NCBI GenBank assembly: GCA_958009085.1 | Contig: OY253669.1 | Coordinates: 992,001 to 1,056,000 of the forward strand | Length of the DNA stretch: 64,000 bases | Origin: Protoeuglena noctilucae | Taxonomy: Eukaryota | Direction: 5' to 3' | Shown: positions 33,552 to 64,000 of the stretch, in pieces | Numbering within the stretch: the stretch's first letter is position 1 | How the letters are laid out: every line of letters starts with the position of its first letter | Notes under the pieces: generated by a model | Told to the model about the DNA's origin: nothing | Database searches by the model: none | What the model saw: the letters and a program-made list of their open reading frames with translations, nothing else | Position numbers and translations under genes: made by a program

Positions 33552-34942
33552 ATGGGGAAGCTCAAGAGCGCCCTCTCATGGGCTGACATTTATAGGGTAA
33601 GGACCGCAGGAGGGCCCGAACGCGCTTAGCGGCTCTCTGGGGGAAGCGATCTCGATGGAAAGCGCTCTTCTGTGAGCGATGCCCGCTGTTCCATGGCTTC
33701 GTGGCGCCGGGCTGTGCCTATGCAGGTAGCATATCCCATTCGCATGTCCTCGTCCCACAGGATGGCCTTGGAGCTGCAAGGACGCTTGCCTCGTCGCTGG
33801 GGGAGGCAACGCTGGGAGGTGGTCGCGCCGGCCTCACCCGGCCCGTCGGATCAGCCGCGATGCCGCGCGGTCCGTGCTCTCCGTCTACTTCGGGACGCGA
33901 GCGTGGCCCCGCCCTCCTCTCTCACCTCCGCCGCACCGCCAGGAGGCCCTGGCGGGCCTTCGCTCCTTGGACGCCCCGCTTTGCCAGCGCCGGGCCGAGC
34001 GCGCGGGCGACGGCAGATCGTCTGAGGATGCTCAACGCAAAGGGCGACTTTTCCGCGGTGGTGGAGCTCTTCGAGAGCCACGCCGTGCCCCGCAATCGCG
34101 AGACCACGGCCGAGTACGTGGCGGCGCTGCTGCAGTCGGGCCGCCTGACCCCGCAGGACGCGGCGCGCGTGCTGTCGGAGGGCCTTCGCGCAGTCGAGAC
34201 GCAGCTGCCGCTCGGGGCGCACCGGTCTGCCGCGAACGGGGGGGAGTGGGCGTCCCGTGCCGACCGCACCTCTGCACCCTGGTGGCAAGCCATGGCCGGG
34301 CCGGCCGAGGCACAGCCGGCGCAGAGCCGGCCTTGGGCGTCGTTCCGGAGCTTCCTCCCGTCGTCCTCGGCCCCCTCCGTACCCCCCGGGGCTAACCCTG
34401 CGGCAACCATGGAGGCGGCATCGACGGGGGCGGCGACGCTGGCGGCGGCGGGGCAGCTGGGCACGCGTGCGTCTCCCGTCGTGGTGCAGATGGCGGAGCC
34501 GTCGCTGGGCGCGTCGGCGTGGAAGACGGTGCGGTCGGTGGCGTCGCTGGTGCTCATGCTGAGCTTCCTCAGCGTAGTGATCGACGAGCGTGCAGGCGGC
34601 GGCATGCTCAAGGGCATGATGCAGAGCCCGGAGGCCTCCCCCAAGACGGGCACGCCGACGCGCTTCGCGGACGTTAAGGGCGTCGACGAGGCCAAGTCAG
34701 AGCTGGAGGAGATCGTCGAGTACCTGAAGGACCCCGTGAGGTTCACGAGGCTGGGCGGGCGCCTGCCGCGGGGGGTGCTGCTCGTGGGGCCGCCCGGCAC
34801 CGGCAAGACCATGCTGGCGCGGGCCGTGGCGGGCGAGGCGGGCGTGCCGTTCTTCTACGCCTCCGGGTCCGAGTTCGAGGAGATGTTCGTGGGCGTCGGG
34901 GCGCGGCGCGTGCGGGACCTGTTCGCCGCCGCCCGCAAGCAG

Positions 34943-34974
<32 letters not shown>

Positions 34975-36479
34975 CGCCATCGGGGGCCGCCGCAACCCCC
35001 GCGACCAGCAGTACGCCCGCATGACGCTCAACCAGCTCCTGGTGGAGCTGGACGGGTTCAAGGCGCAAGAGGGCATCATCGTGGTGGCGGCCACCAACTT
35101 CCCAGAGAGCCTCGACCGCGCCCTCGTGCGCCCGGGGCGCTTCGACCGGTGCGTGTGCACCTCAGCGCTCCTGGCTCGCTTGCAAGGGTGGCCGTGGTTG
35201 CGGGGTGGTTGCCAGGGAGTTCCCAACTTGCTGCGGATGGTGGTGTGGGTCACGAGAGCGGGAGGAGAGGAGAGTGGCACTCCTTTTGTGTGCCGCAGGA
35301 ACGTGTATGTGCCGCTCCCGGACGTGATGGGTCGCAAGCAGATCCTGGAGGCCCACGCCCGCAAGGTGCGGCTGGCGAACGGCACGGACATGACCGCCAT
35401 CGCCAAGGGCACCAGTGGGATGTCCGGCGCCGACCTCGCCAACGTCGTCAACCTGGCCGCCCTCAAGGCTGCCAGGGATGGCCTTGAGACGGTGGACTCC
35501 AACGATCTCGAGTTCGCCAAGGAGCGCATCCGGTGCGTGTCAGCTGTCTTTGGCAGTAAGCCAAGTGTGCCAAGTGTTGCGGTCTTAGAGAGGCGCTAGG
35601 GTTTGTCAGAGTGCGGGTGGCAAAAGGGATTGCGGCTGGCAAGGGGTCCACCACCGCGCGCGTCCATGCAGGTTCGGGACGGAGCAGCGGTCGCGTGTCA
35701 TTCCCGACGATCAGAAGCGCCTGGTGGCGTTCCACGAGGGCGGCCACGCGCTCGTGTCGCTCTACACAGCCGGGGCGCACCCGCTGCACAAGGCCACGAT
35801 TATTCCACGGGGCACGGCCGGCGGCATGACGATGTTTTTGCCAGATGACTCCCGCACCCTCACGTCCCGCAAGCAGCTGATGGCGCAGCTGGACGTGTCG
35901 CTGGGGGGCCGCGTGGCGGAGGAGCTCGTGTTCGGGGAGGCAGAGACGACGACCGGGGCGTGGGATGACCTGCGGAAGGCAACGCAGGTGACTGGTGGGG
36001 CGGGGAGGTGGGGGATGGGACCGTGGCGTGGGGTTGGGTGGCGTTGCTGGCTAGGGTGGGAAGGAGGGTGAGAGAGGCTGTGAAAGGGTTCGGGGCCAGT
36101 GGCGTGACAGTTCAGGATGCGTGTCCACTTGCTGACCGTGCACGCACCAAATGACACCCCCATCCCTGGGTCCCCCCCGCAGCAAGCCATGGCGATGGTG
36201 ACGCAGTTCGGTTTCAGCGAGCGCCTGGGGTACGTGCACTTCAAGGAGGAGGACCTCAAGTCGCTTTCTGACAAAGAGAAAGAGACGATCGACGCGGAGA
36301 CAAGGCGGCTGGTGCAGGGGGCGTACGAGCGGGCCAAGAAGCTGCTCAGCGAGCACCGGGCGGAGCTGAACGCGCTGGCGCAAGAGCTGCAGGACAAGGA
36401 GACACTGACCGCGGAGCAGATCCGGGCGGTGTGCGTGCGCGCGGGGGGGTCGCCACCCGAGGCCCCGCAAGCCGCTTGA
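33552..36479 (+). CDS. ATP-dependent zinc metalloprotease FtsH4/YME1-like (mitochondrial i-AAA)
   Basis: Single [21 protein letters not shown] (Walker A); FIDEIDAIG (Walker B); RPGRFD; AFHEGGH (HEXXH); LGGRVAEEL. Five exons. Confidence 0.93.
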
Positions 36480-42969: not shown

Positions 42970-44906
42970 ATGTTGAGCTGCGCGTCTGCGCGGCGGCCCC
43001 CGAGAGTCGCCGTCCTGCCTTGCGAGAGATCTTCTCCGTATCCATTCCGCTGTTCCTGTCAGCAGGGCCCGCTTCGAGCTTTCGGAGGAAGCTGCAGCAC
43101 CTCGCGTCAGTGCCCGATGCATCTCGCACGCGGCGCGGGTGCACGGCGAGGGGGGGCAGGGCACGGGATGCAGACGAGGAGTCGTTACCGTGCTTCGTGG
43201 CGGAGGGGGACGCGGGGCCCGCATCGCCTTCCCTGGCGCGGGGTCGGGGCCGCACCGGCCGCGCCGGCGCCGCGCCCCCGCCCCGCTGGCCATCATTGAG
43301 CTGCCGTGGGACGCGCGGGACGCGAGCATCGCGGTGAAGGGCTTCGTGGCGGGTTCAATCGCGGCGACTCTCTTCCAGAACGCGGTGGCCGTGGGCACGC
43401 TCGTCCGTCGGGGCATGGACGAGCTGGTCTCTGGCCTCCAGGGCCTGCAACCGGGCGTGGCTCGTCACGTGGACATGGTTCTGGCGCCCCTGCGAGCGTT
43501 GGCGACGCGGCTCGTGCACCCGAGCCAGGACATGATCCGCCACACGGGTGGGTGCCCAGATGCCTCGCGCGTGCTTTGCATAGGTGCTGGCTTCTTCTGG
43601 CGCTAAGCAGATGTTCTTGCGCGTCCCGCAGTGCTCGCCTGAGCTTGCACAGAGCGCGTGCGGCATGCACCAGGGCTCCTCACCCGTCCTGACCCATCCA
43701 TTTCAATTGCAGTGGCGGGGACCCTCGCGAGGACGATGGCCCAGATCGCCATCCACCCCATCGACACGGTCAAGACGAGGCTGCAGGTCAAGACCCCGGT
43801 GGAGAAGCTGATACGATGGAAGAGCAAGGCGAGCAGCTGCGGTACATGCCACGTGACGATGCCGCCCGCGACATCTCTCTAGAAGCGCGACCCCGCTGTG
43901 GAGTCGACCGCCACCACCCCGGCCTTCCGCAGATCATGACCAAGTCCTTCACGGTGGCCCTGGGCGGCCGGCAGTTCCTGGACGTGAAGAACGTGCTGTA
44001 CCGGGGACCGAGGGACATCTACTTGGGCGTCATCGGGTCGATGGTGTCCACGCTGGGGGTCGGGGTCCTGTACTTTGGCACCTACCAGGCCTTCAAGGCT
44101 ACGGCGGACGAGCACCTTGCCTCCACGCGCTTCGCCTCCCTCAGCCACGTCATGGCCGCGAGCACGGGCGCGGTGGTGTCGGCGCTGGTGCGCGTCCCGG
44201 GCGACACCCTCAAGCACCGGGTGCAGGCCTACTTCCACCCCAACTGCTGGGCGGCGTTGCAGGCGATCGTGCGGGAGGAGGGCGTCGCAGGGCTCTACAA
44301 GGGTTTCTCCGCCACGCTCATCCGCGACGTCCCGGAGATCGCCATCCAGTTCACGGCCTACGAGGCCTTCCGCCGGGCGGTGGTGCGGCGGCGAGGAGAG
44401 GAGAAGCTGCCCACCTACGAGCACCTGCTTCTGGGGGGCGCCGCGGGGGCGCTGGCGGCCAGCTGCACCATGCCGCTTGACTACATCAAGACGGTCGTGC
44501 AGTGCGGGCGGCCGGAGCCCATCTTCCAGGTCCTGCAGAACACGCTGGCGGCCGAGGGACCCCGGGGGCTGTTCAAGGGGATGGGGCCACGCGTGCTGAT
44601 GACCACCACGATGAGCGCGGCGTTCTTCGGCCTTTTCGAGTTCTGGAAGCAGGTGCGGGCAGATTGGGGTGTGGTATGGGTATGGCAGGGCATGTGCATG
44701 GGGCGTAGTGTGGCTGGGTATGTGCGTGGGGCATGGTGTGACGAACACTGCGTGTGGTGGTTACCAACGTCCTCTTGCCTCTCGCGCAGGTCCTCAAATC
44801 GACCGAGTTTCGAAAAGGAAGCGACAAGGCCTTCTTGCCGAAGGTCATGGGGAAGAAGAGGGACAAGGTGCGGCACAGCGGCAGCGCGAGCGTGTCTGCG
44901 CTGTGA
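42970..44906 (+). CDS. Mitochondrial-carrier-family (SLC25, SAM-carrier-like) protein with N-terminal extension
   Basis: Three PX[DE]XX[KR] motifs: HPIDTVKTRLQ, VPGDTLKHRVQ, MPLDYIKTVVQ; also GLYKGF...RDVP and GLFKGMGPR. The long Arg/Ala-rich N-extension suggests plastid targeting; the start is uncertain. Confidence 0.85.
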
Positions 44907-45669
44907 GCGCGCTTGTTCGTCATCAGCTGGCGCGACCCCGGCGATCGCCAGCGCGTGTCCCCAGAGATGAGGGGCTAGAGAGAAATGAAATTCATGCAGT
45001 CGGGGCGTTCGCCGCGCCTGGGTGGCAGTGGGGGGTGCAAGAGAGCGTGTATGTGAGCCTTGTCTGTCAGACCGACCAGTGCGAAAAGGTACTAACACAT
45101 GCCCCCCAGGTTCACTCCAACCACACTGAATCCGCGTTACCATGTACCCGTCAGTGCCGCCGCCTGCAGATGCACAGGGGCCCTCTCTCACGCGTGGTGT
45201 CTGTGTTTGGTCACTTGTAGTGTTGGCGAGCGCCCCTGCCAATGTCAATTCCATGACCAGCGCCTCCTGACTTACCGCAGATCTGGAAGCGGCAAGGGCT
45301 GACGTCATGAAATGTTACCGGAACCCTCTCGCACCGCGGGACGTCGATAATCACCGGACTGGGACCGACCCTGACGACGCCGCTCAGTGTCAGCTGTTGC
45401 CCTGAGTCAACTCTGCGGACCGGATATCTGCTTCTTCCAGCAACTGCCGTGCTGCTTTTCGGACGCCGCCGTTTGCCATACGGAGCGATGACTCTTTGTG
45501 ATAGTTGCGTGCCTTTGAGTGTCCATGGGCGTGGGTTCTAACTCCAGAGGCCCTCATCCGGGCCCGCGCCTGCTGCTCTTCACATATGCCAGCGTCTGCC
45601 TACGCACTTCGTGCTCCGACGCGCACCTACTTGAAAAAGTCACGCCATGAATCGTTGCGAGCCAGGACC

Positions 45670-47435: not shown

Positions 47436-47714
47436 GGCCGTCATCGAGGATCAGAGGCCTGGGTCAACTCCCTCGTGACCAAAAGTCGGACTCTTGCCCG
47501 TGCGCGAAACGGCTGGAAAGATTGTGATAACGAATGCAAGCGATGTGCCGAAGGACACGCAGCTCTCGGTCGGCAGCCCGGTGTCACTGGCATGCGAAGG
47601 CCGTGCTGCACAATCTTCACCCAGCAGCGCACATGTGGACACAGCGATCACGCTTTAGGCATCTCCGGTGTCATGCTACGCTCTTCATGCACGCTCTCAT
47701 CCGCTCATTCGGCG

Positions 47715-50700
47715 CTATTCATCCGCCTCCTCGTCACAGTAGAAGGCCTCGCTCGAGATGGAGTCGTCTGCGGACCCGTCCATGTCTGCGTCGCTCCGCC
47801 CGTCGCTCGCCACAGCTGCCGCGACCGCCTCCTCCCCTCCCTCTTTTCCATCGCGAGCCCCGACCGCGCCCTCCCGCTCGCCCTCCGCATCTCCAGACGC
47901 CTCCTCGCTGCTCCCCGCGTTGGCACCCGCCCGCTGCGCCCGGTGCGCCTCTGCGGCCCGCGCCACCTCCTCCTGCTCCCTCCGCTCGCACGCGTGCTCC
48001 TGCAGCTTCGCCTCGAACTCCTCAATCGCCTCCCGCACCTCCGGCTTAGTCGCTGACTTCTGTGGAGGTGCAAAGGACCCGGCAGAGGCACTTGCCGGGA
48101 GACAGCGGGTGCCGGGGTGGCCCACCCGGCCGCCTGTGACTTGACCCAGAGCCGTGGACAGTTTCGTCGCACCCTTGCCAGCGCAGATGGCCTGGTACGG
48201 CTTGCCTGGCGCAGGGGCGGTCCCCGCATTGCTCACGCACCTTGGCTTTGGTGACGGTGGCGTTGAAGTGGTGCAGCACCTCCTCGTCCGATAAGGCCTC
48301 CTGGTAGTGGCCAAAGTGCTCCGTCAGCTTGCGAAGGCCCTTGTCAGACAGCGGCAGCTGAGACAGGCAGAAGGCTGCGGAAACAGGGGCGTAGCGAGGG
48401 CGTGAGGGCGGGCGCAGGGAGTGCACGGGAGCTAAGGGCCACCAGGCAAAGCAAGCAAGCACACAGGCACACACACAGGTGTGCTCACCCAGGTCGCGCC
48501 ACTTGCGGGGCTGGTGGGTCTGGCCCATGCGCAGGCAGAGCTTTTCCACGAGGCCGTGCAGGTGCTGGTCCTTGGAGATGAATTGCAGGAGGAAGGCGAG
48601 GATGCGACTGCGGGCGCGGTCGGCCAGGGCGGCGTGAATGGCAAAAGGCTACGGGCTGCAGCGTTCCCGAAATCGCCCATGCAGCCCCACACAGCCGCAC
48701 TGTGTCCCAGGCAGTCGCGAGTTGCGCGCACAACGCCTTGCATCGCATCTTGCCCCTCCTGCATCTTGTGCATGGCACAGCACGTCTGGCCCCTTCGTCT
48801 CACCGGAAATCATCCACAGTGAGCCCCTGCTCCTCCCCCAGGACCGACAGGATGTCGGGGAGGAGGTTGTAGATGGGGTTAGTGTTCTTGACGCTCTTCT
48901 TGGCCAGCTCGTGGAAGAAGAGCTGGGCCTGGGGCCGCAGCATGTCGTCGTCGTCCGTCAAAAGCAGCGCCATTTTAGCGATGTTGCCCTTGACCTTGAG
49001 CATGTCGTTCAGGATCAAATGCGTGAGGACCATGAGCGAGGTGCGGCGCACGCCCAGGTTACCGTTCCTGAGAGCGCGCAGGCACAGGCGATGCTGGTGA
49101 CGTTGCGGCATGAAGAGGGCATGAAGAGGGTGGCAGTGGCAGCGGGGGAGGGCATCAAGCGTTCGCGGCGACTAAGCAAATTGCGGCCGTGGTCTCACTT
49201 GAGCGGCATGTAGATGTAGTCCGTGTATGGCTCGAGCACGTTGGGGAAGCGGAACGCCAGGTCGCCCGCGGCCACCACCAGCGTCTTGTGCAACTCCGGG
49301 GACTCGCCGTGGTGCCCCAAGGCCTTGAACACTACGCCGATGTTGGCCTCACTGCGGACGACACGCGGGCGCGCGACACGAGGTGGCACCGACACCCGGC
49401 AGGTGGGCAGTGGCGACGAGCTGCGCTGTGCTGCGCCCATCATGTGCAAAGGTGAAGGATGAGCAGCGCAGTGCCTCACCAGAACTCCGCGTCCAGCGCC
49501 ATCATCTTGCACAGGGCGAGCAGGGCCGATGACCGCAGCCCCGGGGGGGCGCGCGTCAGAGCCGCGTCCTGGCACAGCGCAGACACCAGCGGGCGGTACC
49601 GGCCCAGCAGGCCCCGCGTCCCGATGATCTCCTGCTCCACCGCGTCCTTTAACGCATCCAGCTCTGCGTCCTCTGCCACGGCGCCCACGCCGACCTGCAT
49701 GGGACCAAGGTGACGCACGCAGCTCATGCAGCGCATTGTGACTCCCAACTTGCGCCAAGTGTCTCAGCGGGGGTCGTAGCTCGCATCGTGGGTGGTAGCT
49801 TAGGCAGTGAGCCGTCCCAAGGACAGACGCCCTGCTCCCACCATGGATGTTCCACCTGCGTCGCATGCGCTGGCGAGGTCACCTGTGCGGCGATGTCGTC
49901 TTCGTCATCGCTGGCCTCCCCTTTTGTTGCCTTGGCCTTGCCGCGCGGCCCCGCCTTCTCCACGGCCGCCTCTGCCGCCGAGTCTGCCGCCTGGCGGTCC
50001 CTCGCCAGCCGCGCCGCCCGCACACGCGTCACCTGGCTCTCGCAGTACAGCAGGTGCTGCAGCGCCACGTGGGAGATCAGGAACTGCGAAATGTGAAAGG
50101 AATCTTTGCGTTGTCACGTCGCAGCATGGGTCTGGCGGCTCTTAGACAACGCAGCAAGCTGGGACATGCAAACAACCTCGCCACGGTTGCGCCCAGCCAG
50201 GCCCTCCAAGGCAGGCCGTGCTTTGGATGCAACAATATGGAGGGCCCCCGCTATCGCCGGCGATGTCGCCCTGCCGCCCGCCCTCGTCTCCTCACCAGGA
50301 ACCTGGACAGCTTGGACGCGCTGGCGGTCTCCACGTCGCCCTCGGCAGGCAGGCACTCGCCGTGCATGTGCACGATCAGGCTGCACGCGACGCTCTCGGG
50401 GCGCGGGTGGAGGGCGTACAGGGCCCTGATGGCCGCCTCGCATGCCGTGAACCAGCCCTCGTCGGCCAGCCCTGCGTTGACCACCACGCGCGACAGGCAC
50501 TTGTACGCGCTCTGGAGGACCTCGGGGCTGGGGATCTCGTCCCGCTCGAGGGCGGGAGGAGCGGCGGCGGCCGAGGAGCCCGCGGGCGCCGCCGGGGCCG
50601 GGCCGCCCGGGGGCGCGTTGTGGGGCATGGCCCTGCCGACGTGGTAGAGCGCGACGCAGGCATGGCGCATCAGCAGGGCGTCCGGGTGGCCGAAGCCCGC

Positions 50701-53700
50701 GCGTAGAAGGGCCTCCATTTGCGTGGCGGCCATGCCCGGGGCGCTGCTGGCCAGGAGCGAGATCACGCACATGGCGTTCCTGGCCGCCACCGGCTCCCGC
50801 ACCCGCAGCGCCACCTCCCACAGGCTCGCCAGGACGTTGTTGCCCACGCCGCCCTTGGCCGCCACCCCCTGCAGCACCGACTCGAGCGCGGCGAGCTCCC
50901 CGACCGTGGCGGCGCCTGCCAGCGAGCACAGGCCGCGTGCGACTGACATCGAAGCCTCGACGGCGGACAGCGGAGCGCCCGCGGCGGGCGTCGGCGGGCA
51001 CAGGAACATGTGCTGGAAGGCCTGCGGTGGACGAGACACTGTGCTGTTGGCACCGGAGCCTCAGCAGGGGCGGCGCCTGGGCAGTTGGCGAGTCGCCAAG
51101 TCGAGGTGGCTCGCAGCCTCAGTACTGGCCAGAAGCACATTATACATTCCTTTGGGGTGGCACATGACTTATAACATATCTAGGAATGCGCATCCGCTGC
51201 CACTCGCCTCGATGACGGCCTCTTTGACCGCCTGCTCCCGCGAGAAGACGAGGGGCAGCGTCCGCTTGGCGGCCTCCTGGGCGCCCTCGATGTCGAAGCT
51301 CTTGGCCAAGACGATGAAGGTGATGGCCTCCGTCACGTCGCTCGTCGTGCCGCTGGCCAGCAGGTCCGCAGCCAAGGCCATACCCGCCGCCAGCCGCCTG
51401 CGTAAGGTGAATGCCAACGTCAGGCAGGCAGGCATGGCAAGCGTGGCGTGGGCCCGGAGCGCATGCAATCGCGGCTTCCCTTGCCACAGCTGCTGCCACC
51501 GGCCCAGCTGGCTCAGCTCACTTGACGAAGTCCACCGCGGTCTTGAGCGACGCCACGATCGCTCGCTCCCGCTGCAGCTCCGCGTCCCCCTCCGCCGTCG
51601 GTGCGTCCCGGCGCTCCCTCTGTGCGCTGTTTCCCACCGCCGGCTTCTCCTCGGGCTCGGGGAACCCTGCCTTGGGCCCTGGCGTGCCCATCGCCACGTC
51701 ATCGTCCTCCGCGCCTTCCCGGCCGTCGGCGCCAGCCTCGCCCTCTGCCGCTTTGAAGGGCTCCGCGCGCAGGAGGTCGTCGGCGGTCTTGCTGCGGGCG
51801 AAGACGAGGGCCGGGTGGTTGAGGTCACATCTTACAACCCCACATCTCATGGCAGCGCACGCTCCCTGGCGAGGGGTTAGTCCCACTGCACCGCCCGGAC
51901 TCAAGCTCACTTGACCTCCTCGAGTCGCGCGAGCGTGTCAGCGTGGGTCGCCAGGGCGCCCTCCAGCATGGCCAGGTGCAGGTTGCGGCCGAAGGGGTTG
52001 TTGAGCACCATCTCAGCCAGGCATTGCAGCGCGGCCCGGCGGACGTTGCTGGCCTTGTCGTGCACCCGCGCCAGCGCCAGCGTGGCCACCTCCACCCAGT
52101 GGCTGATCGGGATGCAGTGCTGCTTGGCCAGCATGCCCCACGCCGCCATCGTCCTGGCTCGCGTGTAAGCAGACGAGTCCCGGGTCCTGCAAGCGGGCGC
52201 AGGTGATGCCGGAATCGACACGTACGGCCAATAACTGGTCCTTGTGTGGTATGTCCACTCCAAGGCGACGCCGACTGCGCAGTTACCCGCTCCCAATCAG
52301 TCCTCACGCACGCCTCGGCATCGCAACCGCGGTATCTCTCCAGTACTATCCATCCGCTCGCGCTCACCTGGCCATGAGCGACTCGAGGAGGTGCTGCACG
52401 GTGCGCGTGCGGGCCACGGCCTGCGCCGTGGTCGTCTCTGGCACGGGCAGCCCCTCGGCCACATGTTGCTCCTTGAGCCTCCGGTCCTCGTCAATGCCCC
52501 ACAGCACGGCGGCCATCGCTGACACCACCGCGGAGCGGATCGTGTACGACTCCCCGCCCAGGTGCGGCACCAGGAGCGCTGCGAGCGGCAGAGGGGTGGC
52601 CGGGTTGAGATGGGGCAGGGCGGTGGCGTGCGAGTGGATGGACTGGTGTACATGCGGGACCGCAATTTGTCAGACGGCCAGGCTCACCCATGTTGGTGCA
52701 CATGGCCTTGGGCATGAGGGTGGCCAGCTCCTGGATGAACGTCGCCACGTTGCGCACCCCGCTGCTGTCCGCCAGCTGCTGCTTCTTGTACTCCCTGCGG
52801 GTGCGAAGAAGTGCACAGGAGCTCGCTTGGCATTGGCCTGGCATCGGCCGAGTCAGTGGCTGTGCCCAGGGGCAAAGCCATGAAACACCACATACAGGAG
52901 GCGTAAAGTGTTGCTTGGGCTCTCCAGCTTTCGCTCACCGTGGGTCCACCTCGCAGACGAGGTTGAGGACGGCCAGCCCCAGCCCGGGGTCCTCGTAGCA
53001 GCGGTTGGCGTAGGCCGACAGCTGTGCCACGACCGGCGCGGCGTGCTCGTGCTTGGACACCAAATCAAACAGCGCTGCGGGCAGGCGGGAGGTGGGCGTC
53101 GCTCGCGCATGGCCCGGTCCGGCGCCCGACATCCACGCGCAGCGGCCAGAGCGGCGCGTGGCGCACCGGCTGAGATCGGCTCGACCATCTGGTAGCGTGC
53201 AGCGAGCGCCGACACGACCGCAAAGGCCGACTCGCGGCACTCGACGCTCTTCATGGCTTCGGGCGAACGCAGGAGGTCCATGCCAGCGTGGAGGAGGCGA
53301 GCCAGGAGGCGCTCGGGGGGGCGCTCAGGGCTGAACAGCGCCCAGAGGTCCACAGCAGCGGCAGTGGTGAGGGAGCGGGCCGACTTGTCGCGGGTCAGCT
53401 GCCAGTCCCAGCCCGCGTGGGCCACCGCTTTCTTCTTGCCGCGCCTGGGAGCGGAGAAGTTGAATGTTGCGATCAGTGCCGGAGCTGGGAAGCGTGCGTT
53501 TGGCATCCCCCAGCACAGTGCGCGGTGGTCAGCCTCACTTGTTGGCCGCGGGTGCTTCGGCCGCTTGGGCCTTCGAGTGCTCTTCCTCGCACTGCGCTGC
53601 GGCCCATGTGAGGAGCATCACGTGCACCTGGAGCACGTCGGCGTGCTCGTTCACCGCGTCCCGGCCAGCGCTCGGCGCCCCGGACAGGGCGACGGGACAG

Positions 53701-54223
53701 GACGCGCCAAGCACCGACAGAGAGGTGCACAGGCAGTCAAAGAAGCGGGAACGCTGCGGGGGTCGAGGGCATCGAACGGTCGTGGCTTGAGGCGCGGGGT
53801 GTGTCGTTCATTCGGATTTGCAAGACGTGCAAGCTCGCAGAAGACGAGGTTCGGACATGCAGGAAGTCCTCACCTGATCCGGGGATAGATAGAGGAAGCC
53901 CTGCACCAGTGAGAAGACCTGGTCAAAGACATCCTGCTCCAAAACGCTCGCCGACTCGCCGGTTGCCAGGGCATGGACCGCCTCTGAGCGAGGGGAGGGA
54001 GGCGTGCGGGTTTCGGCACTGAGACGTGGAGCTTGCTTGCGCCGGTATCGGCTGCGCGGGTCAGCGCAAAGGCAGTCCGCGCGTGCGGCGCACCTTCCAC
54101 GAGCGCATCGAGCTCCTTCTTCCCCAGGCCCGAGACGTCCACGCCGCTCTGGACGCGGAGCGTATCGCCCTCCCCGGTCTCGAGGAGGTCCTCGGGCTTC
54201 TCCGGCAGGACGAAGCGCGCCAT
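47715..54223 (-). CDS. NCAPD2: Condensin I HEAT subunit CAP-D2 (Cnd1/NCAPD2)
   Basis: PHLGGESYTIRS; RDSSAYTRAR; RVHDKASNVRRAA...NNPF; ALLALCKMM; GDLAFRFPNVLEPYT; VRRTSLMVLTHLILNDMLKVKG; IYNLLPDILS; LVEKLC. Many exons. Confidence 0.93.
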
Positions 54224-54566
54224 GGTGGCCGCGCGGACGCGATTGTTAGTGCACCTGGCGGGCCGTCCCGTTCAAAGCCCACGCGATGCCACGCGCGGGA
54301 GGAGCCCCCGCTGACGCTATCTTCTTATTGGTCAGACCCTCGACGGGCCGACGAGCTGGGCGTCGCGCGTCCCTGCCGGGTTCGCGGCGGACGTTGCTCG
54401 GCAGTGTCACGAGGGAATATACCGGCACCAACGAACAAATCAAAGGCGAAATATCTATCATGGAGGCGGTGGGCGACCGCAGCGAAGCCTAGCCCGCGGT
54501 TTGACCCGCCAGTGGGCACGTTTCAAGCCCTTTGCGACCAGCGATGGGCGGAACCGAAGCCCTGGT

Positions 54567-54775: not shown

Positions 54776-57700
54776 ATGGACGACGCGGCCTCCCTGCTGG
54801 ACAGAGGGCTGAGCATACGCTCTCACCCGATCGATGGGAAAAACTCGGACTCGGATGAGAACGACGTGGGCTTCATCGCGCCATGTGAGCCGTGGAATGA
54901 GCCGTGTTCCGCGTCGACGCCTGTTCCACGCCTCCTGGCCGTAATACTCGCCAGGCTGCTTGATGCCGTCGTCGATAGCTACCAAGCTTGCGAGACTGAC
55001 AATCCCTCACTCCCGCAGCGCGCGCGGCGGGGAGGGAGGCCCAGACGTTCGTCTACACCGCGCGGGTGATGTCTGCGGAGGCCGGGCCGCTCCTGCCCCC
55101 GCCTCGCATGGAGCCGCTGCGCACCGTCCAAGAGGTCATGCAGTGGCAACCGGGCGTGCGGCCGGGCGACTACTTCTGCAGCTCCAGCGTGGAATTGCCG
55201 AGGGACGCGGCGTCTGTGGCGGCCATCTCCGTGCCTGGCCGGCCCCGGCTGCTCGTCTGCCACGACATGATGGGTGGCTACCTGGGTGACGCCCTGACCC
55301 AGGGATGCCCCGACCCCGACGCCTACAAGGTCACCGCCTGGGCCCTCGTAGACACGTTCATGTACTTTTCGCACCACCTATGCACCATCCCTCCGCCCGG
55401 CTGGACAGACGCCGCGCACCGCCACTGCACGCGGGTCCTCGGCACCTTCATTTCCGAGTGGGACGGCGGGGCAGCCGAGTGCGCCAGGGCGTTTGCGACC
55501 GCGGAGTCCGCGGCTGCCCTCGCAGAGAAGCTCGCAGGTGACTGGCTGCCCCGGCCCCTGTCTCGCGAACACCCCTCGCATGACACCTGGCTTACAAAGA
55601 AGCATGGAATCAACTTTGTCTTGCACTCGTCGTGTCACCTCCGTCTTGCAAACTCTCGTGAGACCACCCCAACCCCATGAACACTGGCCCCATGGTGTGA
55701 GCCCCCGCAGAGATTGCGGAGTACTTTGGTTTTGACGGATGGCTGGTCAACATTGAGAACGCGCTGAGCGAGGAGGGCGTGCGGAACATGCAAGTCTTCC
55801 TCACCCGCCTGACGCGGCTGATGAAAGAGGTGCACCCGCTGGGGCAGGTGCTGTGGTACGACGCGGTGACTGTCACGGGGCAGCTGAGGTGGCAGGACAC
55901 GCTGAACGACGCCAACCGGGCCTTCTTCGACTGCTGTGACGGCATCTTCACCAACTACACGTGGCGAGGTGCGTGGCTGGCTCAGCTACATCGACGCAGC
56001 ACAGGCTTGCTAGCCCGTCGTCGGCGGCATTCGGAAACGTGGAGGATTCTCCATGCAACGCAGAGAGCACGCTCGACCAGCTTGCGGAGGCAATGGCTGA
56101 GCATCCCCGGGCCGCGGACGTGTATGTGGGCGTGGATGTGTTTGGGCGTAACACGAGCTACCAGGGCGGGGCAGAGTCTGACCAGGCCGTCCGCGCCGTG
56201 GTCTCCCGGGGCCTCTCCTGCGCCCTCTTCGCCCCCGGTGAGACGCATCGCTGCTTGCCCTGACCTCACCTATTCTCTGCTGACCCTGGCACCGCCACAT
56301 GACATGACTGCACCACCATTGCTGCATTGGACTTTCTTCACTCGATCTCTTGCGCAGGGTGGACCCACGAGTCGGCTCCGATGGCCGGCGACCCACCCCA
56401 GCGCGAGTGGCGTGCCAGGGATGCCACCTTCTGGGACCGCATCCGCCGCTGCATGCGGGTGCCGCGCACGCTCGCGTGCTCGCTGCCCTTCCACACGAAC
56501 TTCTGCCGAGGGGGCGGGCGGTCGTGGTTTGACCAGGGACGCAAGGTCCGCGCCATGCCGTGGTGGTGCCTCTCCGCCCAGTCGCCGCAGCCCCTCTGCG
56601 GCGGCGCTGCCGAGGCCACCACCTGGAACGCAGGCACACGCCACCAGCAGACCGTGCGGGCCCAGCTGTCCGACCGGGTGAGAGCCGCGATTAGCAAAGG
56701 GCCTTGCTATGCTCATCAAGACACCTAGCTCCACTAAAGCGACTGGGACCCTATGGACGTCGATCATGTGCTAGCAAGCGTCAGCTTGTGGAGTTCGGTG
56801 CGTTCCGTTCCCTTTTGTTGACGGATGTGGAATGTTTGACTAGTTCCTTTTACTGTAATCACCCCAGGTGGCCTTCGACGGGAGCGACAGCCTCGAGCTT
56901 TCCGGCGTCATCCCGTGCGGCGCCCGCGTCGAGTTCCGACTCTTCACGACGGGCATCGCCCTGGAGCTCGACAACGCCGGACTCGCTGCGTCCTACACCG
57001 CGCTCCTCACCGCCTCCTCGGACCTGTGGCTCACGCTGTGGATCAGGTGCCAACCGTGCACTCACGTCGCCATCCGATCCTATGACTGATAGACATCACA
57101 TGATGATCTCACAGCGACTGCCGCGGCTCTGGAGACCAATCAGTGAAAGCTTACTGCCACAAGGCTCTCCCGCACGCAGCTTCACGGACCCTGTGCACCC
57201 GAACACGCCTCCGTCCGCCTCCCACCCCAACGGCGCCGGCGCCGCCCTGCGGCAGCCCCACTGCCTCATCCTGCGGGGCGAGGTCGCAGACGCAGACGGG
57301 ACCTTCCGCGGCGCTGTGCTGGGCCCGGATGGGGAGGCTCCGATGCTGGCGACGACGGCAGAGAGGACCGTCTTTGCGCAGTCCAGCCAGGACGAGTGCG
57401 GCGCTCACGAGTCCGCCACGGCCGCCCTCTCCGGTGCGTGTCTCGCTTCTATGTAACTGTGCGAAACTGTCAGCTGAAGCATCATGCGCTAGCTAACTGC
57501 AGCCGCATACCCCGGCGCTGACCCGAGACTCTGCCCCGTCCCCTGCCCCCGCAGAGGCCCTGCAGCGCGCCGCGAAGGCCATCCGCCGCGGCGTGGCCCA
57601 GAGCGGCTCCTACATGGCCAGGGCGAGGGCCGCAGAGGCGCGAACGGGCCCTGGGCCCACGGCGTGGGTGCGCTGGCGTTACGTGGTCTCCGAAATGCAG

Positions 57701-60700
57701 CTCCGCGCCGCCCTGGCCATGCCGGAGGAGATGCCCCTCTCCGCGCTCTCCGTCACCGCCGTCGGCGTCATGTGCGTCCCCACCGCCCTGCATCCCCCGG
57801 GCCCCGGCGTCTCATCCCTGGAGCCCTTTGCCGCCTTCCTCAGGTCCCTGAGCCTCGCCCCCGCGACCCCCGACCTCGCGCGGGGCTCCCCGCCCGCCCA
57901 TGCGTCCGTGGCCGTCACCGACCCCTCCTGCCACGCCGTGTCTCTCGTGGCAGCCCCCGGGGTGGCCATGCCGGTTAGGGTCGAGGGCGGACCGGAGACG
58001 GGCGCTCCCTGCCCCGAATGCACGCTGTCCCTGGACCTGAGGTGGGACCTGCCGGACCCAGAGACCCACCCGCGCCTCCCGGGCCCCGACGTCCTCCTCA
58101 CCCGCGTGCTCGTCTACCTGGAGGGCGACCCCACGCAGGCCAAGGCCGCGGGAGCCGCGCCCTTCTCAAACGGGGCTAAGGAGACCTCAGAGATCGCTCT
58201 GGGCCCCGCCAGTCCCACGGCACGGCCACGCAGCGCCGCGCCCACGCCCGCCTCTGCGCCCGCGCCCCGCACGTCGGATCGGCCGGGGTCCTCCGCCGTC
58301 GCCAGCCGCCTGGGCCCCGCCCGCTCGGTGGCGCCTGCCACGTCGGTCCGGGCCGTGCACGCGACGCCGGCCACGGACCCGCTGGCCTCGCACCCCGAGC
58401 AAGGCGACCACGTCTTCGGCCGCCCCAGGCGCAGGGGATACGCCACGGGGCCGCGCGCGCAGGCCCACCGGCCGGCGATGGCGGGACCCGACAGCCCCAC
58501 CGCCGCCCCGTTCAGCGCCCCTGTGCCGCGCTTCATGCTGCCCACGGCCTCCGCACTGTCCAAGGCGGGCCCGGCGGCCCGCATGCCTTCGGGCATCCCT
58601 CCAGAATCCCTCCCGCGCCTGAGGGGTGCGAGCGGCGCGACGTCCTCGGGGCGCCCGAGCCCCGCACGCAGCCGAGCAGGGTCGCAGCTCCGCGAGCGAT
58701 CGGGTCCCCGCGCGCGGCAGGACAGCCCCATCGTGGCCGCCCTCGACTTGGCCGGTGCGCCGTGGGCGTCCGCGCCCGCACGCGCGCTCCCGATGGACGG
58801 GGGGCAGAGCCAGGGTTCCGCAAACGAGGCCGCCCGCCGCGCCCACGCCGGCGCCGGTGCGGGCGCGGACGACGTGGGCGACCGGGTGGTGCAGCGGCAG
58901 CTCCTGCAAGAGTTTCTGGAACTCGAGCGACTCACACAGGCACCCAAGGGTGCAGGCACGGGTGCGGGGGAGGAAGCATCGGCGCTGCGGCTGCGGGGCG
59001 GGCACCGCAGCGAGGCGGGGAGCTCGTGCGCAGGGAGCGATGCGGGGGAGGGCCAGGAAGCGGCCGCGTCCGAGTACGGCCCCGCACCGTCGTCGGTCGC
59101 CTTCAAGGCTGTCACCTCCCCGGGACCCTCACTGGCACCGTCGCGGCCCTGGGTCCCCTCGGGAAACGCCCGTTCGCTCCGATCGAATGCCTCAGCAGGT
59201 GCGGAGAGAGCCCAGGGACGTCCGCACCCGGCGGCCGTGTACGTCGTTGCCCCAGCAGCGTCCCCGCCGCGCCCCGCCACGCCCACCCGCGAGGCATCCC
59301 GGGCAAGTCTCGGCACGGGCACCTCGGCGCCTGCCCACGTTTGCGGGGGCGCCGCTTACCCGGTGCACGAGTGCCCGGCATGCTCGGCAAACGTGTCCGA
59401 GCACGCGGTGCGGCCGAGGGGCAGCGTTACCGAGTCTTCCGTGCGCCCTGCGTCCCCGACGCACTGCGAGGCGCGGGCCGGTCGCCAGGGCGGCGCGGAG
59501 GGCGTCGGGGTGCGGTCGTGGCCTCGGCGGACAGCCGAGGGTGCAGAGGCGGGGTCAACGAACGCCCGCCGCCTGACTTACACGTCAGCCCTGGACAGGA
59601 TGGTTGCTGGCATCGCGGCGGTGTCGCAGGAGCGTGATCCGGGCACTGCAGTGCGCGAGGAGACGGGTGTGGGGATGATCTGTGGGGCCGAAGGCGGCGA
59701 GGGCGGAGGGGCCGGGGTGGAGGGCTCGTGGGAGGTGGAAGGGGCGCCGCGGGGGGCAGAGAGGGATGGGCTGCCGAAGATCTCGGCCGGTGCGATGGGA
59801 GTCGAGGGTGGGGTGGCTGTGGGCGGGGAGGGTGGGAGTCACACCGCGTGTGAGGATGCAAGCGGTGCGGCTCATGTTCGTGACACGGAGGCGAGGGGAG
59901 GGGCTAGTGTTGGGGCGGGGCGGCTGCCGAGCCTTGACCCTGGAGAGAAGGGTCGCCCGCCCATTGAGCCTGGCGAGCTGGGAAGCACGGGTGGGGTGGC
60001 GACGGAGCCAGGCGAGCGCCTGGGCCAGGCGCATGATGGGTGCGTCGTGGCGAGCCTGCATGAGGAACAGAGCGTGGAGAGGGCCGGGGCTTTGCTGTCT
60101 CGTCAGGAAGCAGGAATCGGGTCCCATGACTCGCCAGCCGGCGCAAGGGTGGAGATGGAGGCCCTTGCAGCGACTGTGGACGGCACGACGTCAGCCGTGG
60201 CAGTGATGCAGCCGTCGGTCGAGGCGATGACCGATGCCCCATCGACTGTGCTGATCAGAGACCCGGTCGCTGCTGCCGCGGGCACCAGTGGGGGTGACGA
60301 TGTGGGCTCGGATGCTCTGCCTGAGCAGGGCTGTGAGCTGGGCGCGGATGTGGGCCCTGAGGCGGGTGCGGCGGTGGAGGGTGTCTTTGGGGTGGTGGGT
60401 GTGGTGATGAAGGGCCCTGGTGCAGTGGAGGATGCCATTGGGGAGGGTGCTGTGGTGCAGGGTACCCTGGGGGAGGGTGCTGTGGTCGATCATGCCGGGG
60501 TGGTGGAGAGCGATGTGGCGGGAGAGCGCGAGGAGGGTTTGAGGGGCACTGCAGTGATCGTCGAGCATCCTGACGCTGCTTATGCTTCCACGGCAGAGGC
60601 GCCGGTAGGGGTCACGGGGGTCGCTGGGGTGGCCTCTGCTCCCCGTGACGCTGACGTGAAGAGCGAGGGCGTTGCAGAAGCACGGGCCACAACCACGGGC

Positions 60701-63700
60701 ACACCCGCGCTCGTGGGTGGGGAAGATGTGACTGGGCTCGAGACCCCAGGTCAGGCTGGGACAGCAGGCGTGGGTGGTAGCGGCAGTGGTCGGGCTGAGG
60801 AGAGGGGTGGGGCGGACGGGGTGGCAGCTGAGATGGTGTCCGAGCGTGGAGCTGCTGACAAGGGGCCGGAGGGCTTGGATGGGCAACTGCAGGTGGAGGG
60901 GCAAGGGCGGATGGAGAGTGATGCGCAGCGGGGGAGCGCCGTGCTGGATGAGGGGCCGCAGTTGGCAACGGGGAGTGAAGATGGGGTGGGTCCGAGTCAT
61001 GTCACTGTGTCAGCACTGGAAGAGGGCAAGGTGGACGTGGTGGCAGTGACTTATTGGGATCCACACTGCGCGTCTCAACAGACCGCTTCTGTGACGATGC
61101 CGGTGGCACCAGAGAGGAAGGTACAACCAACCACAGACGCGGCTGATGCCGTGGAGACCGGGCGAGACCGAGGCGTGGGTCCCGCCGCAGATAAGCGTGA
61201 CCCTCGCGGCCAGGCCCAACTGGACTCCACCGGCCCTTTGGGATCCTCCCACGCTGCCGGCGATGCCCCGGCAGCAGACACAGTGTGTGTGACAGCGGTG
61301 GTCACAGAGCCACTGCCGTCTGGGGACGCGCAGACAGGTCCAGCCGGTGCGTTGTCGGGGGTCAGTGGCGATGGTGCGACGGTCAATGCGCCGGTCGAAG
61401 GCAAGGGCGCGCACTGCGCAGTCCATGAGCCAGTAGCAGCCACCGCAGAGGGCGCAACGCTTGATGCATCAGGTGGAGGCACTGACGAGGGCGTGGCGAC
61501 GCATGGGGCACCAGACACGCTCAGGCCAGCCGCAGTGGCAGACGATTGCCTTCCATCCCACTTTGCCACGCTTGACGAGGCCCCATCTCCCAGCGAAGAA
61601 GCTGGGCACCGACGCAGCAGCCCGGGCGGCGACGGGCGCGTGGATGCAGCACCCGTGGCTGTTCTGGCAGTTCCGGCACCACCCCAGCACGGTGCAGTAA
61701 CAGACGCGTTACCGATTGTTGGTGAGACCTTGGTTGGGACCCCAGCACAGGGCGAGGCTGACCCTGACGTGCTCCCTCGAGACCACGTCACGCCTCCATC
61801 GGTTGCCCTGGCTGATCTCTCACGCCACTCTGACTTGCCCGGCGGGGCTGCGGAGGGCGCTGGGGTCGTCGCCTTGGCGGCCGGCGATGCGTTCCTGGCT
61901 GACAGCCAGGCAGGCTTCGTTGAGACAGCAAACGTGCCCTGCGCCACGGGCACCGGCAACACGGATGCCGCCCTGATATCAAGCCCTGCGATGGGTGGCC
62001 AGCTGGCATCTGCAGAGGAGCATCAGCCACCCTCGGATGCGGGGGAGGCGCAGGCGCGGCTCAGCACAGCATCGGGGGCAGCCAGCACGCAGGCCGAGCA
62101 AGCAAGCAACAATGAGGGTGGCGACGTGGATGCGGGTGATGCGGTGGAACCTCATGCTCAGAGTGACCGGGGCAGCCTTGCCAGCGATGGCGGGGCCATC
62201 GGCTTGCACGCGTCAACAGCGGGCCTGGAGATGACTCACAGGCAGCGCTCGGTACCCGAACCTAAAACAGCGACGCTCAGCTCTCCGCGCGTTGCACAGT
62301 CGGGGCCAGAGGAGGCGGTGGTGGGGAGCGAGAGCAAGAGTGGGTGCGCAGACAGCGAGGTGCTACCTGAGCCATTGCTTGCGGCCACCACACGCCCACA
62401 AGCGGCCGAGGGAGATGCGGGGCGGAGCGCGGTCATCCGCCGCGCTCCTTCGCATCGCGCCAGTGCGGGTGCCGTGGCTGGGACAAGTGATGTGACCGGG
62501 ACAGGTGGGGCTGACGGCGTGGCCCTGGGTGCGGGCGAGGAGGGCACAGCCCCAGTGGGGTTGGCTGTACGTGTTGCCGGGGAGAGGGACGTCCGAGAGG
62601 GTGTGGCCATTGGTGCTGCCGAGGACGCCACTGCGTCAGTAGGTGTGGCTGGGCCTGAGGCGGCTACGACTGAGAAGGCGACGGAAAGGGCGGGGGCGAG
62701 TGTGGTCGTGGGCTCCAGACAAGGCGCGGCCATCGACACAGCGAGCGAAGCGCCTGAACGCTGTGACCAGGATGATGCTGCAGCGTCGGCTTGCGAGGTG
62801 ATGCTGGGCTGTGGCAAACATAACGCTTCCAGCGTCGCACAGCTCATGCCAAGGCACTCGTCTCAAACACCGCAATGTACCGTGCATGCGCAGGTCCCTG
62901 GGCAGCCCGTGGGGAGGGCGGAGTCGCTGTCGGCGCCGCAGAGCAGGGCTGAGGCTGTGCAGACTGATGTTACGCCGAGTGCGCACGGTGTGGCACAGAC
63001 GGATGCCATGCCGAGCGCACATTGGGCTGCGCAGACAGATGCGACACCGAGCGCACATGGCGTGGCCCAAACCAACGCCCTACCGAGCATGCATGGGGTG
63101 GCGCAGACAGATGCTGTGCCGAACGTACACGGGGCCGCACAGACGGAGGCTGTGCCGAGCGCACACAGTGTGGCCCAAACAGAGGCTGTGCCGAGCGCAC
63201 ATGGGGTGGCACAGACGGAGCAAGCGATCGTGCCGCAAGAGGGCGCTATGCCGATTGCGATGTCGACCACGGCTGAGGTGGTCATGCAGACGCCGTGCGG
63301 CCCCAAGGCTCACGATCACGGAATCGTCACAGCCTCGAGGGTCACGAGCGTGCAGACGGACGGCGTCGCTTCAATCCACCGCTCCGTGCAGACGGATCCG
63401 ATCACCCCATCGCCTCCGTCCCTGCCAGTCACTGCGGACATTCCGATACGGGACGCAGCCGGCCCACTCTCCGCCGCCTATCCATCGCTTTCGCAGTCCA
63501 AGCAAGCCCTCCCGCGGCCGGCGCGCTCCCCAGCGGTCGCGACGCCCGCGTTTGCCAGCACCCGTGCGCTCTCGGGAGTGCAGCGGCTCCGGGGAGGCGG
63601 CCAGGTCGGCGACGATTCCGTTTCGGGTTCCCAGAGCGGCTCACCGGACGCGCCAGACCGGGCTGGGCAACACGAGGTGCGCGACATGCAAGCCAGATCG

Positions 63701-64000
63701 GGCGGACCCCCGGTTGCAATTGGTCCCCAGCAGAGCAGCCCGGGACCGGTGGAAGCTGGCTTGCCATCGCCGACACCGGCAGACCCGCCCTCAACTGCCC
63801 AGCGGTCCACGGGGCTGCCACCGAGACACGACGGGATCGCGACTGGGGCGGGTGGCGTGACTGGGGCGAGTGGCGTGGTTACTGGGGCAGGTGCTAGGTC
63901 GGTTGTGGACTCACCAGACGGCTGGGACGGCGCAGCTGCGGCCGGGAGTGCGCAGGAGGAACCGAGGAGCCACGAGCTGGAGGATGCGAGGAGTATAATC
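54776..64000 (+). CDS. ENGASE: Cytosolic endo-beta-N-acetylglucosaminidase (GH85 ENGase) with a >2,000-aa low-complexity extension; 3'-partial
   Basis: Inferred exons 54776-54884, 55019-55537, 55711-55968, ~56064-56237, ~56359-56677, 56868-57046, 57180-57433, 57555->64000. GH85 motifs LLVCHDMMGGY, YFSHH..TIPP.GW..AAHRH...VLGTFISEW, YFGFDGWLVNIEN (catalytic N-x-E), VLWYDAVT..G.L.WQ..LN, DGIFTNYTW, VYVGVDVFGR, ALFAPGW. The last exon has no stop before the window end. Confidence 0.88.
62957..63220 (+). repeat. 36-bp (12-aa) coding tandem repeat, ~7.5 units, consensus V-A-Q-T-D/E-A-V-P-S-A-H-G
   Basis: Translation VQTDVTPSAHG VAQTDAMPSAHW AAQTDATPSAHG VAQTNALPSMHG VAQTDAVPNVHG AAQTEAVPSAHS VAQTEAVPSAHG VAQTE. 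Confidence 0.9.

Follow-up and report, generated by a model that had tools for sequence, protein, structure and literature searches.

The 64,000-nucleotide stretch of Protoeuglena noctilucae DNA analysed here (contig OY253669.1 of assembly GCA_958009085.1, positions 992,001 to 1,056,000 of the forward strand; hereafter the window) contains an ENGase gene of the glycoside hydrolase family GH85 whose reading frame can be followed into a giant stop-free frame that is still open at the end of the window. The best explanation, to which a probability of about 0.6 was assigned, is one gene that encodes one polypeptide in its productive isoform: a working GH85 enzyme in which an extension of 1,900 residues or more, specific to the lineage, interrupts or replaces the immunoglobulin-like (Ig-like) end. 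The locus is read as a real if exceptionally large addition to a known enzyme, confined to one lineage, and it shows no new mechanism.

Gene model

A seven-exon model with GT..AG splice sites comprised 2,700 codons without a stop. All introns of the model were of the GT..AG type, with lengths of 95-190 nucleotides (nt) and a GC content of 0.51-0.62. The sole in-frame exit from exon 6 led into the giant frame. The initial annotation had treated everything behind this junction as a single giant exon, which proved incorrect: a 1,429-nt RNA contig from run X2 removes 96 nt, GT..AG, at 62798-62893. Its estimate of more than 2,700 amino acids (aa) corresponded to the 2,700 codons counted before removal of this RNA-proven intron and had to be lowered to 2,668 codons within the window. 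The parts of the model are as follows.

55069..55537, + strand: ENGase exon 1; start ATG at 55069, N-terminal GH85 barrel, PF03644 with E = 5.2e-24 on the piece 55000-55680, donor GT at 55538
55711..55968, + strand: ENGase exon 2; N-I-E and W-Y-D catalytic motifs, PF03644 with E = 1.1e-32
56064..56237, + strand: ENGase exon 3; PF03644 with E = 1.2e-11, splice sites read in DNA
56358..56677, + strand: ENGase exon 4; closes the GH85 barrel, Pfam match weak (E = 0.0033), donor proven by RNA
56868..57046, + strand: ENGase exon 5; start of the beta-sandwich, motif VAFDGSDSLELSG, acceptor proven by RNA, aligns to the AFxGGxSLxxxG block of 11 homologues
57180..57433, + strand: ENGase exon 6; poorly conserved and loop-like, splice sites read in DNA, in frame in the model
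57434..57554, + strand: intron 6; 121 nt, GTGCGT..CCGCAG, GC 0.62, the junction joining the enzyme to the giant frame
57555..58129, + strand: start of the giant frame; ENGase-like C-terminal strands, GC content at third codon positions (GC3) 0.91-0.92
58094-58129, + strand: ENGase-like strand LLTRVLVYLEGD, collinear in the MAFFT alignment
58130..62797, + strand: tail part 1; orphan and of low complexity, no stop, no Pfam family
62798..62893, + strand: in-frame intron; 96 nt, GTGATG..GCGCAG, GC 0.57, proven by RNA
62894..64000, + strand: tail part 2; orphan, with a 36-nt repeat, frame open at the window end

The splice signals at the junction were present where they had been annotated, with a GT donor at 57434-57435 and a CAG acceptor at 57552-57554; the join 57433/57555 is in frame, with codons from 57557. 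Upstream, the ENGase gene shares a region of about 0.8 kb with a divergent gene for condensin complex subunit 1 (47700-54270, minus strand), which was recognised by the Pfam families Cnd1_N and Cnd1 in two exon pieces.

Statistics of the open frame

A stop-to-stop listing contained one plus-strand frame without a stop from 57497 to 64000, comprising 2,168 codons. The next-longest open frame of the whole window had 1,070 codons. Over the same ~6.4 kb, the remaining frames contained 26 and 56 stops on the plus strand and 21, 22 and 37 stops on the minus strand. Each of 1,000 block-shuffled versions of the stretch contained 25 or more stops, with a minimum of exactly 25 and a mean of 44.7. From the base frequencies of the frame itself at each codon position, 25.8 stops were expected and none was seen in 2,147 codons. 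The frame is open up to 64000, as first reported, and is so in statistical excess over its composition.

The GC content of this region was 60-78%. Across the whole tail, the first codon position comprised 51% G and 9% T, and the G-rich first position persisted along the tail. GC content was higher at the first than at the second codon position in 18 of 21 segments of 300 nt, the exceptions at 58157, 58457 and 59057 all lying in the part rich in Pro, Ala, Arg and Ser. The enzyme exons had a GC3 of 0.88, and exon 7 began at 0.91-0.92 before dropping to 0.56-0.70 beyond 60500, near the GC content of introns. With no stops and little of the codon bias of the enzyme, the tail frame was therefore read as guarded against stops yet weakly biased, which fits weak constraint, low translation or a young age.

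Transcription and splicing

RNA was covered by four marine metatranscriptome runs of one study, which contained 9-37% of the sampled words; three RNA runs were used as contigs. Four runs of an 'organism A' contained every sampled word and may be the source of the DNA; one of them was used as contigs as well. Transcript starts cannot be seen in such contigs. The RNA contigs had no differing letter in any listed piece except one (X2 record 11, one letter) and were collinear with the genome over 57196-57712, 58086-59808, 60956-61150, 61178-61432, 61514-61762 and 61842-63813. Tail part 2 was covered by pieces at 62892-63566, 63498-63732 and 63545-63813. Two spliced joints were found in run X2, both GT..AG on the plus strand. 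The joint 56676->56867 (cut +1) corresponds to spliced intron 4 (56677/56868). The joint 62795->62892 (cut +2) in the 1,429-nt contig corresponds to the splice 62797/62894, which keeps the frame. The enzyme part and the distal tail are transcribed and spliced on the plus strand, and for the tail the second joint agrees with the strand annotated at the outset. A splice-out soon after 58140, considered in the initial annotation, was absent from the RNA contigs, which are collinear over 58086-59808.

Loose-end strings of run X2 at 58768 and 59498 were examined as splices from exons of the window and rejected, as they were absent from the window at up to three mismatches. X1 record 3, starting at 57196, carried 24 extra 5' letters of a CACCCT repeat from outside the window; this end probably arose when the assembly was joined at a word of low complexity.

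The GH85 enzyme part

The annotated GH85 ENGase was present. Between 55000 and 56530, four consecutive frame pieces matched PF03644, and the catalytic Asn, Glu and Tyr were intact. On three exon pieces the domain reached 85.7, 114.2 and 45.2 bits, compared with a cutoff of 22.2 bits; the fourth, with 17.4 bits, was below the cutoff. The homologue search, run on proteins of up to 2,000 aa, found 13 GH85 proteins, and the 11 full-length ones were aligned and profiled. Against this profile of eukaryotic ENGases the spliced model scored 524 bits. Exon 2 aligned in phmmer to residues 159-246 of Endo-A (3fha, E = 5e-12), with N-I-E on N171-Q-E173 and W-Y-D on W204-Y205-D206. Asn171, Glu173 and Tyr205 are given as the catalytic residues of Endo-A (PMC2646837). 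Because these three residues were matched, the enzyme part of the gene looks functional, and its domain and catalytic residues place it in GH85. Exon 5 aligned well to the first beta-sandwich strands of the homologues. For exon 6, hhalign against the homologue profile gave nothing (E = 0.55).

ENGase-like strands at the start of exon 7

In a MAFFT alignment with the 11 ENGases, the motifs of exon 7 were collinear and in the correct order. WVRWRYVV (57665-57688) was placed on the invariant Trp block, which reads WETRRYVL in the nearest homologue, P0008. AVGVMC (57758-57775) was placed on E-I-G-x-x-C and LRSLSLAP (57839-57862) on L-G-E-I-x-x-x-P of the homologues. The first Ig strand was matched by TLSLDLRWDLP (58022-58054) and the next by LLTRVLVYLEG. 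For part of this stretch, hhalign gave E = 0.047. The alignment of a hidden Markov model to the whole gene model reached residue 598, with an envelope to residue 736; exon 7 begins at residue 552. Against a profile of the C-termini of the homologues, the real sequence scored 6.0 bits, a value reached by 5 of 3,000 shuffles. The family likeness appears weak but real, and exon 7 would complete the beta-sandwich and lead into the Ig-like domain. No counterpart of the conserved LGxAxxxxFxV block was seen in the MAFFT alignment, in which only LDLRW and the next strand were placed, and the ENGase likeness was therefore taken to end at about 58130, after about the first two Ig-like strands. The annotation of the first ~190 residues as C-terminal strands of the ENGase was thereby upheld as a weak match in the right order; the C-terminal family PF25529 (Ig_ENGASE1_C) was not found in them. 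Among the homologues, PF25529 was detected in P0006 (E = 1.7e-21) and P0005 (E = 3.7e-08) and was absent from P0008 and P0009. A single-sequence AlphaFold2 model of the 218 ENGase-like residues was unusable, with a predicted local distance difference test (pLDDT) score of 35.2.

Composition, relatives and predicted structure of the tail

The tail was rich in Pro, Ala, Arg and Ser and basic up to ~59350, then rich in Gly, Ala, Val, Glu and Asp and acidic, with a net charge of -13 to -19 per 150 residues, and rich in Pro and Ser again at the end. The reported shift from a Pro/Ser/Ala-rich to an acidic G/A/V/E/D-rich composition was therefore reproduced, with its turn at ~59350. A sharp boundary was also found inside the open frame at 59500-61000, where GC skew rose from about -0.02 to between +0.31 and +0.38, GC3 fell and the charge became negative. 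The boundary may separate two parts of different origin or age. Tandem Repeats Finder identified one 36-nt unit (12 residues) with 7.1 copies at 62960-63216. As this repeat was the sole self-match, internal duplication was rejected as the origin of the tail.

No Pfam family was detected in the tail and no Rfam family in the window. An exhaustive HMMER search with the first 1,200 tail residues against 1.84 billion representatives returned only P0015, the product of the tail's own open reading frame (ORF). P0015 was likewise the only match in a word-based search for relatives among proteins of 1,191-3,793 aa. The distal 988 tail residues, compared with shorter proteins by the word-based search, matched only P0016. 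Among the metagenome contigs of JGI, an exact search with 40 nt from the window end gave no match, and a protein-guided scan gave 100 pattern stretches, none of which was confirmed by tblastn. No usable match to the tail was found in the ESM Atlas (recognition 734). Taken together, the tail presents as an orphan, low-complexity and lineage-specific sequence. The proposal that the enzyme is tethered to a scaffold or polyprotein received no support, as no domain, repeat architecture or relative was found in the tail.

P0015 is an ORF-caller product of the same DNA with 2,162 aa, starting from the Met at 57614. P0017 is the same ORF with seven additional residues at its start and is the second member of the same cluster. 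P0015 runs 34 codons past the window, where the genomic frame closes. After the last residues encoded in the window it continues with T-E-V-M-L, and E-V-M-L is also encoded at the donor of the 62798 intron (GAG/GTGATGCTG). Because of this shared motif, we suspect a further intron that starts with a GTGATG donor a few bases after 64000 and would contain the stop of the frame. P0016 comprises 96 aa from a 593-nt ENA contig, 54 residues of which were identical to the tail at 61379-61540. Both of its flanks were unrelated and of an AT-richer coding style, and no splice signal was present at the left edge in the window. P0016 is probably a chimeric short contig; a copied fragment elsewhere is the alternative.

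Sequence entropy was 3.3-3.7 bits in the tail and 3.9-4.0 bits in the barrel, and order-promoting residues made up 13-23% and 31-37%, respectively. The single-sequence AlphaFold2 model of 600 tail residues was coil except for one hairpin, V-D-V-V-A-V-T-Y-W (61031-61069), at a mean pLDDT of 36, and a low pLDDT obtained without an alignment is not specific for disorder. The tail is likely disordered. Of the annotated 'giant disordered extension', the low-complexity orphan stood, and disorder itself remained a prediction that the charge-hydropathy plot reproduced in 3 of 18 windows.

Proposed gene product

The proposed gene would work as follows. Six short exons would encode the GH85 TIM barrel and the first part of the beta-sandwich. 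In the productive mRNA, intron 6 would be spliced out, placing the enzyme and the tail in one polypeptide. The first ~190 residues of exon 7 would then finish the beta-sandwich and open the C-terminal Ig-like domain, after which the frame would add about 1,900 residues within the window and more beyond it. The tail would form a flexible, largely unstructured extension. Selection presumably keeps the frame open, because ribosomes have to read through the tail to reach the downstream exons or a proper stop. GC-rich genomes may readily accumulate and tolerate such extensions because they carry few stop codons. By analogy with other cytosolic ENGases, the enzyme would cut the chitobiose core of free or protein-bound N-glycans, and the tail would at most tether or space the enzyme.

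Assessment of the fusion and of alternative explanations

Several results weigh against a single polypeptide. Both RNA contigs that cross intron 6 were unspliced, X1 record 3 (57196-57625) and X3 record 16 (57445-57712), and the spliced joint 57433/57555 was absent from the RNA contigs. With intron 6 retained, the product would end after 558 residues at the TAA of 57454-57456. No RNA contig bridged the enzyme and the distal tail. RNA depth was zero at 59889-60522 in all three runs, which by itself carries no evidential weight. The RNA contigs all came from one study, and DNA can be present in RNA libraries. The likeness of exon 7 to ENGases was also weak or missed by several methods: alignments by BLASTP reached exon 7 in none of the 13 homologues and ended at model residues 123-515, PF25529 was not detected at E <= 1 in the residues encoded at 57557-58210, and the probability from hhalign for the start of exon 7 was 1.1%. 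Within the tail, GC3 dropped distally from 0.92 to 0.56-0.70, and when codon usage was scored by log-odds learned from 767 codons of exons with Pfam support, the open frame ranked best in only 11 of 21 segments. The charge-hydropathy plot placed few tail windows among disordered proteins because Ala and Val are abundant in the tail, and the tail has no orthologue by which constraint could be gauged. The fusion of the GH85 enzyme to the giant frame, as initially annotated, remains the more probable reading and has an in-frame GT..AG join without stops; RNA does not show it, since both contigs crossing the junction were unspliced.

One alternative is that the locus yields two products. Intron 6 would normally be retained or bypassed to give the 558-residue ENGase, and the tail would be translated separately, either starting at the ATG of 57614 or on a transcript whose start lies in or close to intron 6. 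The unspliced contigs, one of which begins inside the intron at 57445, fit this reading, as do the lack of a contig linking enzyme and tail and the public ORF-caller records P0015 and P0017, which match a separate tail product. However, it would split the beta-sandwich, the first strands of which are encoded by exon 5 and the last ones by exon 7, and the splice 57433/57555 restores exactly the open frame, for which the chance is 1 in 3. X1 record 2 runs 5 nt into intron 4, a sign that this run may contain precursor RNA not yet spliced, or DNA. A separate start of the tail lies outside what the contigs can reveal, and ORF-caller products are uninformative on eukaryotic splicing. Two products from one locus were judged unlikely on this balance. 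Less probable still is an incomplete model, in which unseen introns in RNA-uncovered parts (57713-58085, 59809-60955) or past the window would take the ENGase to a nearby stop and leave the distal frame to another transcript or isoform. One unexpected intron was indeed found inside a supposed exon, no RNA contig lies over 59889-60522, and near 59500 GC skew changes sharply from -0.02 to +0.38, GC3 falls and the charge flips. Yet a splice leaving the frame would free the rest from constraint, and no stop was seen compared with about 26 expected; a 3' untranslated region (UTR), a promoter and a 5' UTR would all need the same freedom from stops in the same frame. Only two intron-like GC dips (below 0.60) occur in the tail: the proven intron accounts for one, and a collinear RNA contig runs across the other.

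The open frame might also be meaningless, as a product of chance at high GC, a shadow of the opposite strand or an assembly artefact. The GC content of the region and the weak support from codon usage leave room for this, and the window has many frames of 300-500 codons that overlap other open frames on one strand or the other. This reading is nevertheless hardly credible: none of the 1,000 shuffles fell below 25 stops, each minus-strand frame was interrupted (21, 22 and 37 stops), and the proven splice in the tail is GT..AG on the plus strand. A 48-kb DNA contig (run X5), which may be the source itself, spans the stretch without a difference and extends about 10.7 kb beyond the window; in three other samples, RNA contigs match the stretch without a differing letter except in one listed piece.

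For the origin of the tail we consider, as an unlikely scenario, that it is young coding sequence. The ENGase frame would have lost its end inside the Ig-like domain and run into formerly non-coding DNA, of which more than 6 kb would now be transcribed, spliced, stop-free and translated. Few de novo additions to a conserved enzyme would be as large as a tail born in place in this way, and retention of intron 6 would then act as a switch between a compact enzyme and a giant form.

Comparison with known ENGases

The closest systems were the cytosolic GH85 ENGases of Cuscuta (P0006, 692 aa), Capsaspora (P0004, 805 aa), Ectocarpus (P0009, 680 aa) and a EukProt entry (P0008, 813 aa). The GH85 barrel was 31-44% identical over about 320-500 residues to the 11 full-length homologues. 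The same invariant motifs occurred, in the same order from the barrel through the beta-sandwich to the Ig-like end, and there was no extra N-terminal domain. The 13 homologues had lengths of 336-1,174 aa, in contrast to at least 2,668 aa for the present model. Plant and animal cytosolic ENGases carry a complete Ig-like PF25529 domain; it was undetected here, where about two strands were recognisable before the tail. Endo-A of Arthrobacter protophormiae (PDB 3FHA, 3FHQ, 2VTF) has the catalytic Asn171, Glu173 and Tyr205 in common with the present enzyme. Endo-A is a 621-aa bacterial three-domain enzyme without an extension, and likeness outside the barrel was not detected. Other algal and eukaryotic GH85 proteins also gain C- or N-terminal parts. 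The Scenedesmus 'ENGASE2' P0010 (1,052 aa) combines GH85 with a thioredoxin domain (PF00085) and P0012 combines GH85 with a glutaredoxin domain (PF00462). These additions are known folds of about 100 residues, whereas the addition found here exceeds 1,900 residues and belongs to no family. Among the matches listed for literature on ENGase and GH85, the titles and abstract openings contained no algal or giant ENGase, and none appeared among the papers listed on low-complexity or disordered proteins of GC-rich green algae.

Two further long low-complexity frames were found in the window, both on the minus strand: one of 887 codons at 2055-4718, with a CCCH zinc finger (PF18044) at its end, and one of 1,070 codons at 9623-12835 without a Pfam family. 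Like the tail, both were rich in Ala, Gly, Pro, Ser and Arg and had no Pfam family over hundreds of residues. They differed from it in size, being half as large or less, and in GC3, with 0.77-0.79 compared with 0.56-0.74 in the distal tail. This suggests that long low-complexity coding stretches are a genome-wide habit and that the ENGase tail is its extreme.

Significance

The enzyme part is ordinary; the gene is of interest for the size of its tail and for what this size says about the evolution of the tail. As an orphan that lacks the ~26 expected stops, the tail is therefore a clean test case of how very GC-rich genomes grow coding sequence and of whether giant extensions are functional or tolerated. 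If the fusion protein is real, it also calls for caution in annotation, as gene finders and ORF callers would split or truncate such genes; in public collections the tail ORF alone is recorded, with an internal Met as its start. Retaining intron 6 would in that case switch simply between a short and a giant isoform. If the tail is read-through ballast, it would be a curiosity of one lineage.

Other features of the window

Three further loci were recognised by Pfam. A PAN domain together with a piece of the hydroxyproline O-arabinosyltransferase family was located at 23127-24182 on the minus strand; the distribution of that family is consistent with an alga of the green lineage. The plus strand carried an AAA ATPase with lid domain at 33596-35599 and a mitochondrial carrier at 43693-44970. 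A run of 200 N, representing an assembly gap or masked sequence, was present at 26332-26531.

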